The notes under the pieces were generated by a model that worked only from the letters and a program-made list of their open reading frames with translations, was not told where the DNA came from and made no database searches. Positions 773 to 4,434 of a stretch of DNA of 64,000 nt are shown here, in pieces (position 1 is the first letter of the stretch; every line of letters starts with the position of its first letter). The DNA is taken from the NCBI GenBank assembly GCA_902582875.1, contig CACHTV010000002.1, forward strand, positions 12,024-76,023, written 5' to 3'. The position numbers and the translations under genes were made by a program. Origin of the DNA: an uncultured Pelagibacteraceae bacterium (GTDB lineage: Bacteria > Pseudomonadota > Alphaproteobacteria > Pelagibacterales > Pelagibacteraceae).

Positions 773-1470
773 TGAAAACAAAAATATTTTGTGACAGCGC
801 AGACTATAAGATTATTAAATTTTTTAATAATAAAAATTTAGTTAATGGCTTTACAACTAACCCAAGTTTAATGAGACTTTCAGGGGCTAAAAACTATAAA
901 GATTATTCATTAAAAATTTTAAATATTTGTAAAAGAAAACCAATTTCATTTGAGGTTTTTGCAGACAATCCCAAAGAAATGCTTAAACAAGCATATAAAA
1001 TAAACAAATGGGGCAAGAATGTTTATGTCAAGATACCAGTTGTTAATTCAAAGGGATTTTTTATGGGTTCGGTAATTAGAGAATTAAGCAACAAAGATAT
1101 AAAATTAAATATAACAGCCGTATATACTTATGAGCAAACAGTGAAAATTTTTAAGTGTTTAAATAAAAAAACAAAATCAATAATATCTATATTTGCAGGT
1201 AGAATGGCAGATAAAGGTAAAGACCCGCTTCCAATATTTAAAAAAAGCATCGCCTTAACAAAAAAATTCAAAAATATTGAAATTCTTTGGGCTAGCACGA
1301 GAGAAGCTTATAATTTTATTCAAGCCAAAAAACTTAGATGCAATATTATAACTATGCCTCCAAAAGTGATTAATCAAATTAGTTCATTTGGTAAAAGTTA
1401 TAAATCTTTAACTCTTGATACAGTTAAAGGTTTTTTAACTGATAGTAAAAAATCTAAATTCAAAATTTAA
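772..1470 (+). CDS. tal: Transaldolase (short TalC/FSA-type)
   Basis: GFTTNPSL, ISFEV, VYVKIP (Schiff-base Lys), LNITA, SIFAGR, LWASTRE motifs. Confidence 0.9.
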   Translation: MKTKIFCDSADYKIIKFFNNKNLVNGFTTNPSLMRLSGAKNYKDYSLKILNICKRKPISFEVFADNPKEMLKQAYKINKWGKNVYVKIPVVNSKGFFMGSVIRELSNKDIKLNITAVYTYEQTVKIFKCLNKKTKSIISIFAGRMADKGKDPLPIFKKSIALTKKFKNIEILWASTREAYNFIQAKKLRCNIITMPPKVINQISSFGKSYKSLTLDTVKGFLTDSKKSKFKI

Positions 1471-3284
1471 GAAGCTCTAGAACGTCTTTTTCTTTCGTGA
1501 GGATCTAAAATTAATTTTCTTAATCTGCAGGACTTTGGAGTAATTTCAAGCGCTTCATCAGTGTTAAGCATACCTAGTTGTTCTGCTATTGCCATTTTTC
1601 TTACTGGAGTTAAAACAACATTTTCATCTGTTCCTTGCGTTCTCATATTTGTAAGCTTTTTTCCTTTCATGACATTTATTTCTAGATCTCCACTTTTAGA
1701 GGCTAGACCAACGATCATACCTTCATAGACCGGATCATTATGAGTGATAAACATTTCACCTCTTGCCTGAAGATTGAATATCGCAAAAGCAACAGCTTTT
1801 CCATCTTCCATAGAAATTAAAGCCCCATTTCTTCTTCCCTCCATATCTCCAGTGTATTTCCCATATGAGTTAAAAATTCTATTTATTACTCCAGTTCCCT
1901 TGGTTAAAGTTAAGAATCTACTTGTATAACCCATTAATCCTCTGGTTGGAGCGTGAAAGATTAATCTTTTTTTATTTTTACCAGTATCTTTTAGTTCAAT
2001 TAATTTCCCTTTTCTTCTGTTCATGGAGTCAATTATTTTTGAAGAGAATTCCTCATCTAGATCCATTGTAATTTCCTCTATTGGCTCTAGTTTATTTCCC
2101 TCTTTATCTTTTTGAAGCAATACTTTTGGCGGACTCACAGTCATTTCAAATCCTTCTCTTCTCATTTGAGTGAGTAAAATTTCTAGCATCAATTCTCCAC
2201 GTCCGCTTATTATAAAAGCATCTTTATTTTCATTTTCATCAAACGATATTCCAACGTTATTTTCTGCTTCTAAAATCAATCTTTCTCTTATTTGAGTGCT
2301 AGTTAATTTTTTACCTTCTGTTCCGGCAAGAGGTGAACTGTTAACTGTGATAGTTATAGACATTGTTGGGGGATCAATGGGAGTTGCGTCTATAGGTTTA
2401 TTTATCTCAAGATCACAAATAGTATCTGCTACATTTGCTTTTTCTAAACCAGCTATTATTACAATATCTCCTGCTTCTCCTATTTCAATGGGCACTCTTT
2501 TTGTTCCCTCATATCTAAAAATTTTTGTTAATCTTCCTTCATCAATTTTTTCACTTTTAAGATTAATCGCTTTAATTTGTTGATTTGCCCTAGCCGTACC
2601 TTGTGCAATTTTACCAATCAGACTTCTACCTAAAAAACTGTCAGCATAAAGCAATGTAGATAACATAGCGAAAGGTTTTGTTTTATCTAATGGAGCAGGA
2701 TTCACTTTTTCAATAATTAAATCTAATAAAGGATGCAAATTTTCTCTAGGTCCGTCTATTTCTTTGCAAGCCCATCCAGATCTTCCGCTTGCATATAATA
2801 CATGAAAATCCAATTGTTCTTCGTTAGCGTCTAAGCTAACAAATAAATCAAATGTTTCATCTAAAACTTCATTAGCTCTTTGGTCAGATTTATCTAATTT
2901 ATTTATAACCACTATAGGCTTTAAACCTTGTTTGAGAGCCTTAGCTAAAACAAATTTTGTTTGAGGCATCACTCCTTCTGCAGAGTCTATTAATAACAAA
3001 GCTCCATCTGCCATATGTAAAACTCTCTCTACTTCAGCAGCAAAATCTCTGTGACCTGGTGTATCTATAATATTTATTCTAGAATTTTTCCAATTTATCG
3101 AGGTTGGTTTTGCTAAAATTGTAATACCTCTTTCTTTTTCAAGTTCACCTGAGTCCATAAGCCTTTCTTCAACAACTTCATTGTCTCTAAATAAGCCGCT
3201 TTGTTTCATTAAACTATCAATCAAAGTTGTTTTGCCATGATCAACATGCGCAATGATTGTTATGTTTCTGATTGTATTCGTCAT
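1467..3284 (-). CDS. typA: Translational GTPase TypA/BipA
   Basis: IAHVDHGKTT, ERGITILAK, DTPGHRDF, GRGEL, C-terminal EITPKSCRLRK. Confidence 0.97.
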   Translation of the reverse strand: MTNTIRNITIIAHVDHGKTTLIDSLMKQSGLFRDNEVVEERLMDSGELEKERGITILAKPTSINWKNSRINIIDTPGHRDFAAEVERVLHMADGALLLIDSAEGVMPQTKFVLAKALKQGLKPIVVINKLDKSDQRANEVLDETFDLFVSLDANEEQLDFHVLYASGRSGWACKEIDGPRENLHPLLDLIIEKVNPAPLDKTKPFAMLSTLLYADSFLGRSLIGKIAQGTARANQQIKAINLKSEKIDEGRLTKIFRYEGTKRVPIEIGEAGDIVIIAGLEKANVADTICDLEINKPIDATPIDPPTMSITITVNSSPLAGTEGKKLTSTQIRERLILEAENNVGISFDENENKDAFIISGRGELMLEILLTQMRREGFEMTVSPPKVLLQKDKEGNKLEPIEEITMDLDEEFSSKIIDSMNRRKGKLIELKDTGKNKKRLIFHAPTRGLMGYTSRFLTLTKGTGVINRIFNSYGKYTGDMEGRRNGALISMEDGKAVAFAIFNLQARGEMFITHNDPVYEGMIVGLASKSGDLEINVMKGKKLTNMRTQGTDENVVLTPVRKMAIAEQLGMLNTDEALEITPKSCRLRKLILDPHERKRRSRAS

Positions 3285-3289
3285 TATTT

Positions 3290-3366
<77 letters not shown>

Positions 3367-3371
3367 TTGAA

Positions 3372-3575
3372 TTAAAATTTTTTAATATTTATTGCTTGGA
3401 GTTTATTTTTCTCTTCTTTTATATCAAACTTAATTTTTTGCTCTTCTTTTAATACTCTTAGCTTAGATTCCTCTAGCGCTGAAACATGTAAGAAAATATC
3501 TTTATTTGTTTCATCATCAGTAATAAATCCATAACCTTTTTTGGAATTAAACCATTTTACTTTACCAGATGGCAT
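3372..3575 (-). CDS. Cold-shock protein (CSD)
   Basis: GKVKWFNSKKGYGFI and DIFLHVSAL RNP motifs; start placed at ATG 3575 (MPSGK) after a GAGG SD rather than at 3590. Confidence 0.93.
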   Translation of the reverse strand: MPSGKVKWFNSKKGYGFITDDETNKDIFLHVSALEESKLRVLKEEQKIKFDIKEEKNKLQAINIKKF

Positions 3576-3604: not shown

Positions 3605-3799
3605 TTAGTACCTATTTTTTAGTTTTTGGAGTTTTTTTATTCTTTTAATATTTTCTGTTTGAACTCTTTTTTTTCTTTCTGAGGGTTTTTCATAAGTGCT
3701 TTTCATTTTCATAATTTTGAAAAAACCTTCCTTTTGAAGCTTTCTTTTTAAAATTCTAATAGCCTGTTCAACATTATTATCTTTTACTTCTATTTTAAT
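3605..3799 (-). CDS. rpsU: 30S ribosomal protein bS21, ATT start (not in the ORF track)
   Basis: Manual translation (M)KIEVKDNNVEQAIRILKRKLQKEGFFKIMKMKSTYEKPSERKKRVQTENIKRIKKLQKLKNRY*, with the S21 signature V.DNNVEQA.R.LK.K...EG...YEKPS; AGGAGG 5 nt upstream; in-frame TAA at 3814-3812. Confidence 0.93.
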   Translation of the reverse strand: MKIEVKDNNVEQAIRILKRKLQKEGFFKIMKMKSTYEKPSERKKRVQTENIKRIKKLQKLKNRY

Positions 3800-3803
3800 A
3801 AAA

Positions 3804-3810
3804 ACCTCCT
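3804..3810 (-). promoter_or_regulatory. Strong Shine-Dalgarno (AGGAGGT) of rpsU
   Basis: Minus strand reads AACAGGAGGTTTTT-ATT. Confidence 0.85.
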
Positions 3811-3849
3811 GTTAATTTCACGTTAGTTATCATCTGTTTAGGTAATTGT

Positions 3850-4434
3850 CTAGACTGAAGCTGCTTGCGCTTTTTTTTCTTCTCTAATTTTGGCTTTTCT
3901 TTCTCTTTCAACTCTTCTTTTGGCTTTTTCAAGACTCTTTTGAAAAGTTTCTTGAGTGCAAAGTGCTAAAATTACTGGATCTCTAGGTTTGAGATTAGAA
4001 AAATTCCAATAACTTCTTTTTCTAATTAGTGATACAGTGCTTTTTGTGCTTCCAACTAATTTTGAGATCTGTCCGTCTGTTAATTCAGAGGCGTTTTTAC
4101 ATAACCATAAGATAGCGTCAGGCCTATCCTGTCTTTTAGATAAAGGTGTATATTTAGGTTTTTTTCTTTCTTTAACTTCTACTTCATCAACTTTTTTTAG
4201 TAACTTTAATTCTTTTTCAGGATTTTTTGAACATTCCTCTATTTCCTCCCTAGATAATTGCCCAGCTAAAATTGGATTATAAGCCTTAATTCCTTTTGCT
4301 ACATCTCCGTCAGCAATTCCTTTAATCTCTAATTCATGTAGATTACAAAATTCTGCAATCTGTTTAAAAGTTAATGTTGTATTTTCTACCAACCAAACAG
4401 CAGTGGCTTTTGGCATAAATGGTGCTTCAGGCAT
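3850..4434 (-). CDS. trcR: DUF1013 family protein (TrcR-like RNA polymerase-associated regulator)
   Basis: MPKATAVWLVENTTLTFKQIAEFC, KYTPLSKRQDRPDAILW, LKPRDPVILALC, typical of alphaproteobacterial DUF1013. Confidence 0.88.
   Translation of the reverse strand: MPEAPFMPKATAVWLVENTTLTFKQIAEFCNLHELEIKGIADGDVAKGIKAYNPILAGQLSREEIEECSKNPEKELKLLKKVDEVEVKERKKPKYTPLSKRQDRPDAILWLCKNASELTDGQISKLVGSTKSTVSLIRKRSYWNFSNLKPRDPVILALCTQETFQKSLEKAKRRVERERKAKIREEKKAQAASV

Follow-up and report, generated by a model that had tools for sequence, protein, structure and literature searches.

To our knowledge, confirmed AUU-type start codons in bacteria are few. The closest described cases are Escherichia coli infC and pcnB, in which, as in the gene considered here, AUU opens the frame of a translation-machinery gene (10.1101/063800, PMC7797042). 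Initiation at near-cognate codons is lowered by IF3, hence the autoregulation of infC (PMC7797042), and in E. coli reporters AUU, AUA, and AUC reach 1–2% of AUG (10.1101/063800). In Staphylococcus aureus, AUU-type codons behind extended Shine-Dalgarno (SD) sequences give approximately 10–30% of AUG; cvfC1, ccpN, and citZ, with AUU or AUA behind such SDs, yield about 10%, with ccpN being condition-dependent (PMC13009471). For rpsU itself, encoding ribosomal protein bS21, the precedent is autoregulation by bS21-lacking ribosomes in Bacteroidia (PMC9976891, PMC13000457), where the rpsU SD spans 9–13 bp, lies below −13 kcal/mol, and is nearly unique, and where the anti-SD pocket involves bS21 Tyr54. 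In E. coli, rpsU regulation is described as an open question (PMC10931766), bS21 binds late and loosely, is exchangeable, and promotes SD pairing (section 2.10 of the same article), and immature 30S particles under-represent it (PMC9032327). E. coli rpsT (bS20), like rpsU, stands alone as a ribosomal protein gene and has a weak start codon, a UUG proposed to permit autoregulation and, according to section 2.9 of PMC10931766, neither confirmed nor refuted in that role. UUG is a canonical start, however, bS20 is a primary rRNA binder, and alphaproteobacterial rpsT uses AUG (same section), as does rpsT in the genome described below (ATG).

Here we describe rpsU of an uncultured Pelagibacteraceae bacterium (SAR11) within a window of 64,000 nucleotides (GCA_902582875.1, contig CACHTV010000002.1, positions 12,024 to 76,023 of the forward strand; Table 1). 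The original prediction placed an intact 64-codon bS21 frame, absent from the list of open reading frames, behind a strong SD and an AUU start. The frame is indeed intact, its 64-residue product exceeds the curated cut-offs of both TIGR00030 (57 bits against 28.95) and PF01165 (56 against 27), and the assembly (73% complete) contains no second copy. On the minus strand it reads TAA(3814-3812) CAG GAG GTT TTT ATT(3799) AAA ATA GAA GTA AAA GAT AAT AAT and stays open to the TAA at 3607-3605, translating as stop-Q-E-V-F-IKIEVKDNNV...NRY-stop. As had been claimed, no ATG, GTG, or TTG lies between the upstream TAA and the ATT (3799-3797). The gene is thus hidden to callers restricted to those three codons, but not everywhere, as for locus L101 the NCBI record P0131 already assigns its initial M to the ATT. 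ATT 3799 is almost certainly the start of rpsU: a near-cognate codon stands at the N-terminal position where a canonical start is absent, as in infC and pcnB, here on comparative evidence. GGAGG precedes the near-cognate codon by 4–9 nt in 121 of 121 unique family loci, a spacing suited to initiation, and since the SD-to-codon distance takes values of 4, 5, 6, or 9 nt among these loci, the leader is read as non-coding.

Table 1. Features of the rpsU locus, in coordinates of the window
Feature	Coordinates	Strand	Basis
typA/bipA	1467..3284	-	TIGR01394
Initiator tRNA-fMet	3290..3366	-	tRNA-Met(CAT); C1:A72 initiator mismatch; A29-U41
Cold-shock protein gene (csp, downstream)	3372..3575	-	profile match
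rpsU (bS21) CDS, 64 codons + TAA	3605..3799	-	frame intact, profile matches, single copy
ATT start codon (inferred)	3797..3799	-	homologous codon in all 263 unique order loci is AUG or one base off
Shine-Dalgarno AGGAGGT, GGAGG 5 nt ahead of ATT	3804..3810	-	pairs with own 16S tail
In-frame TAA, rules out upstream start in this genome	3812..3814	-	sequence
Predicted sigma70-type promoter	3824..3852	-	-35 TAGACA 3852-3847, 17 nt, TG-n-TAACTA 3832-3824
trcR (upstream neighbor)	3850..4434	-	PF06242

The claimed strength of the SD was borne out as well. AGGAGGT pairs with the 16S tail of this genome, GGATTACCTCCTTT, at −11.4 kcal/mol (RNAduplex), a value that only 4 of 657 confidently ATG-started genes (a subset of 845 crude ORF calls) equal and that places the rpsU SD in the top 1%. 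SD use in this genome is low but real, with 40 of the 657 genes (6%) at or below −7 kcal/mol versus 14 (2%) in a mock window, again on crude calls. Strong SDs also precede rplV (−11.3 kcal/mol) and rplN (−10.1 kcal/mol), both with ATG, and a proteorhodopsin-like gene. The strongest among confidently started genes (−13.0) stands before a 257-residue gene at about 53152 of the window (C2:65175) on the plus strand, which we take to be proteorhodopsin-like. Other ribosomal genes checked in the genome start with ATG, mostly without an SD, with rplP and rpsK being uncertain. A scan of the same genome (73% complete) for further SDs of −8 kcal/mol or better ahead of near-cognate starts returned 62 non-ATG matches, nearly all of them internal, beside an ATG, or in unrecognized frames; judged by eye and without homologue comparison, rpsU is the sole clear ATH start. 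The SD does not extend toward the start codon, given that TTTT follows AGGAGGT where the 16S tail needs AAT. By eye, the 16S tail is GGATTACCTCC in family f1 and GGATCACCTCC in sister family f2 (own genome and L523-L527), and the commonest leader in g6, GGAGGTAGT, could form 9 bp with the tail of f1 up to 1 nt ahead of the ATT, making it a possible extended, start-proximal SD.

Upstream, the −35 element of the predicted promoter overlaps the trcR stop, and a promoter-like TAGACA-17-TGnTA motif recurs in 219 of 220 unique rpsU leaders; a consensus scanner that demands T at the last −10 position omits it. Such a promoter would imply a leader of approximately 18 nt. Of four runs with RNA contigs, two from the same study show summed depth dropping beyond about 3832 in the upstream direction, a drop that we do not count as evidence because RNA contigs cannot place a transcription start. 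The rpsU leader folds no better than shuffles (z −0.73), with no stable structure, and its region has no Rfam match, leaving no sign of a structured leader or known RNA element. With a leader this short, unstructured, and free of Rfam elements, any control would therefore have to act at initiation itself.

The predicted trcR-rpsU-csp-tRNAfMet-typA cluster was confirmed in full. The csp start is likelier the ATG at 3575, with a weak SD, than 3590; csp is missing in some environmental relatives (RNA contigs, joint 3366/3612), in which rpsU directly adjoins tRNA-fMet, and from many fetched loci too. In the initiator tRNA, A29-U41 replaces the first of the three G-C pairs of the anticodon stem, a variant that is natural in alpha-proteobacteria (PMC5389676). 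It was found in 215 of 235 tRNA matches of the fetched loci, the other 20 having a different stem.

Comparison across relatives, proposed at the outset as a check, revealed a near-cognate codon in 29 of 29 same-genus loci (ATT 27, ATA 1, ATC 1; own included), and the best 80 loci of the genome collection, partly from the same genomes, gave ATT 77, ATA 2, and ATC 1. A pattern search (GGRG, 3–10 nt, then ATH and the N-terminus) matched SD + ATT/ATC/ATA in 247 of 301 family genomes, a count that includes the unpublished G137 and G553. The original prediction had named ATG in reads or close relatives as one observation that would undo it; ATG is absent from the genus (0 of 68 genomes), but occupies the same codon in 29 further genomes of the 301. 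The remaining 25 match neither pattern. Re-searching 18 of them yielded no rpsU match in 17, which is not evidence of absence as the assemblies are incomplete, and SD+ACG in G187; G542 carries SD+ATT with a protein variant, and searches of the other 6 gave no rpsU match. In all 33 unique loci of sister family f2, AGGAGG is followed by an ATA or ATC that is shifted upstream by one codon. Across the order, 302 loci reduce to 263 unique ones (ATT 146, ATA 34, ATC 3, ACG 8, ATG 72; not frequencies, as ATG loci were fetched deliberately), and the start codon is in every case AUG or a single-base variant of it. A-rich stretches carry what look like frameshifts in rpsU of L290 and L292 and in infC of G078, probably assembly errors. 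On this comparative sequence evidence, the near-cognate rpsU start with its SD is a real, conserved, and apparently selected feature of SAR11.

Start codon and SD covary. All 191 near-cognate loci of the order pool (ATT, ATA, ATC, ACG) keep an SD of −6.5 kcal/mol or better, while among the 72 ATG loci the SD is absent in 67, decayed in 4, and intact in 1. The 16S tail is identical in ATG, ACG, and ATT genomes (four of four family genomes checked). The claimed pairing of strong SD with weak codon is therefore obligatory in one direction, but a common Pelagibacter lineage uses ATG without SD. The single SD+ATG locus (L414), the decay steps GGAAGT and AAAGGT, and the eight SD+ACG loci (L413 of G187, L437, L439-L444) all fall among close kin of the ATG type. 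Since ATT cannot become ACG in one step, ACG presumably arose via ATG, a route that stays a usable start throughout. ATG together with an SD thus appears rare or short-lived, relieved by loss of the SD or by a weaker codon, and this suggests selection against over-strong initiation. For ACG-start loci, databases give an extended protein with Thr.

The number of events behind this pattern was assessed with a tree of flanking genes (trcR, rpmE, suhB; of 231 loci, 163 were usable and gave 152 unique rows). The tree separates the ATG loci into two or more groups; on a subtree of 89 rows, the AU test rejected a single ATG clade (p = 1.4e-4). In promoter distance, however, the two ATG groups are 0.19 apart versus 0.36 between group A and its ATT kin, and over codons 2–27 they are closer to each other than one group is to its own ATT kin, the trend being opposite over codons 28–40. 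Independent origins of the ATG/no-SD form are rejected, as the promoter and first 27 codons show common ancestry of the ATG/ACG leader despite the split in the tree; this leader looks like a single allele that recombination has spread. An apparent recombination breakpoint lies in rpsU near codon 27 (L271-L299, L414-L465), with the promoter and 5′ part common to two Pelagibacter lineages and the 3′ part not. On this reading, the ATG groups are not counted as replication, and the covariation rests on roughly one event.

Outside SAR11, 90 alphaproteobacterial rpsU loci (the best 30 plus 60 picked among 150 matches listed, hence biased to typical sequences) start with GTG in 45, TTG in 22, ATG in 13, and a near-cognate codon in 10, two of which are ambiguous and the other eight spread over seven families. 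In the same 30 genomes, ATG starts 5 of 30 rpsU genes, 27 of 29 parsed rpsP genes, and 28 of 28 parsed rpmA genes; in other classes of the phylum, 27 of 28 rpsU loci have ATG. Avoidance of ATG extends across the class but, of the three ribosomal genes compared, is confined to rpsU. A class-wide compensation between codon and SD was not seen, with SD strength being alike between start classes (medians of −8.0 kcal/mol for ATG, −9.1 for GTG/TTG, and −8.8 for near-cognate).

By analogy with infC, pcnB, and the near-cognate genes of S. aureus, SD and AUU on rpsU may act as an IF3-gated throttle on bS21 synthesis, the reading that we consider the strongest candidate while placing it slightly short of an even chance. 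The gene would have its own promoter and a leader that, at approximately 18 nt, is too short to accommodate an operator; the SD would park the 30S subunit such that AUU is placed in the P site, where acceptance of fMet-tRNA would run at a few percent of that on AUG and where, judging from E. coli infC, IF3 would reject the AUU complexes. The occupancy of IF3 would then set the leak, with bS21 synthesis rising whenever IF3 is outnumbered by 30S subunits or proofreads less strictly, and output would track the 30S-to-IF3 balance, which fits a protein that binds late and is loosely held. The ATG/no-SD allele would reach a tolerable bS21 level without the IF3 gate. Support comes from the near-cognate codon never occurring without an SD and ATG mostly doing so, and from the class-wide, rpsU-specific avoidance of ATG. 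On the other side, the gate would be dispensable in a successful lineage, given that the ATG/no-SD allele holds in those 29 family genomes, and most rpsU starts in the class (67 of 90) are GTG or TTG, canonical codons whose SDs are no different in strength.

The proposed parallel with infC is itself partial: the AUU start and SD spacing agree, but the product here is a ribosomal protein rather than IF3, so any loop would be indirect, and infC of this very genome (L302, C7) starts with GTG straight after a TAA, without an SD. Among 33 infC loci (L300-L338), GTG without SD recurs in the same genus and in g6, ATG is found in g5, and ATA or ATT probably stands behind an SD in f2 and g7; classic IF3 autoregulation may thus have been lost in part of SAR11. 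That infC has no near-cognate start either here or in g6 counts against the IF3-gated throttle. The S. aureus genes share the conserved weak codon and strong SD but are different genes in another phylum, and the SD in the window lacks their extension toward the start codon. Three Pelagibacter phage bS21 genes have canonical starts (HTVC008M ATG, Kolga SD+ATG, Mosig SD+TTG) and would thus escape a host throttle. A viral contig scan found only 2 loci, and G536 (8% contamination) carries two additional divergent copies of S21, of which one resembles the Kolga protein.

A less probable explanation, though one that accounts for SAR11 as well as the IF3-gated throttle does, is that SD and AUU merely fix the right amount of bS21 and respond to nothing, being kept by a fitness valley in which any single step would abolish the protein (AUU without SD) or overproduce it (AUG with SD). 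The near-empty corners of the distribution, with no near-cognate locus lacking an SD and one ATG locus with an intact SD, are what such a valley predicts, as is the stepwise decay of the SD after ATG; the ATG/no-SD allele is viable, has spread, and matches the default for genes of this genome with its low SD use. A fixed amount leaves unexplained, however, why rpsU but not rpsP or rpmA avoids ATG class-wide and why near-cognate starts recur in seven other families.

Autoregulation by bS21 itself seems unlikely to us. Here, 30S subunits without bS21 would initiate better on SD+AUU, through a freer anti-SD or relaxed start-codon selection, closing a negative loop as in Flavobacterium. In common with Flavobacterium johnsoniae and other Bacteroidia are the gene and the unusually strong rpsU SD, here in a genome whose SD use is low but real, and neither rpsP nor rpmA shows the trait. 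The distinctive element in SAR11 is instead the start codon. Its SD is 7 bp long at −11.4 kcal/mol (by RNAduplex, not the program of the Bacteroidia study) and does not stand alone, since the SDs of rplV and rplN show that the anti-SD is not reserved for rpsU. The residue equivalent to Tyr54 (residue 53, placed from the equal-length match ranges of query 3-56 and 7JIL chain 4-57) is Arg in 118 of 121 loci, and the C-terminal tail is Lys/Arg-rich where that of Bacteroidia is less basic. Membership in the Bacteroidia circuit, the parallel drawn originally, is therefore rejected. Moreover, as E. coli bS21 promotes SD pairing (PMC10931766 section 2.10), the loop would be positive rather than negative.

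Equally doubtful is an extension of this idea to the whole class, in which the weak rpsU start codon would be an alphaproteobacterial feedback device and bS21-lacking 30S subunits, whether still late in assembly or stripped in the course of a phage infection, would relax start-codon selection and prefer the SD+AUU rpsU.

That translation starts elsewhere is very improbable. An ATA stands at codon 3 in 117 of 121 loci, many Pelagibacter loci have an in-frame TTG four codons upstream, and 99 of 111 parsed database matches carry an N-terminal extension, as an upstream TTG start would produce. Against this, the ATG and ACG alleles occupy precisely the ATT position; the ATA lies 11 nt from GGAGG and is retained in genes of the ATG type; the upstream TTG, missing in this genome, overlaps the SD; and the SD-to-ATT distance differs by non-multiples of three. 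A sequencing error or private mutation of ATG, for which nothing was found in support, is as good as eliminated by the near-cognate codons of all 29 same-genus loci and of 247 of the 301 family genomes.

In the literature consulted, no non-AUG rpsU start is described for SAR11 or Alphaproteobacteria, although supplementary tables of start codons and SDs might mention one. The 90% cluster of the ATG-type protein includes AAZ21399.1, which we take to be bS21 of the reference strain HTCC1062. If that is correct, the strain studied most carries the atypical allele, and this would account for the trait having gone unremarked; gene callers restricted to ATG, GTG, and TTG miss or mis-extend SAR11 bS21. 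Nature also supplies an allele series on near-identical proteins (SD+ATT, SD+ACG, SD+ATG, decayed SD+ATG, and ATG without SD), which makes the readings directly testable with short reporter leaders. Across most of SAR11, an AUU-type start is placed on a core ribosomal protein gene, and across Alphaproteobacteria rpsU avoids AUG where two control ribosomal genes do not. Should bS21-lacking subunits indeed favor such starts, this would constitute a second, codon-based route to bS21 autoregulation via specialized ribosomes, outside Bacteroidota.
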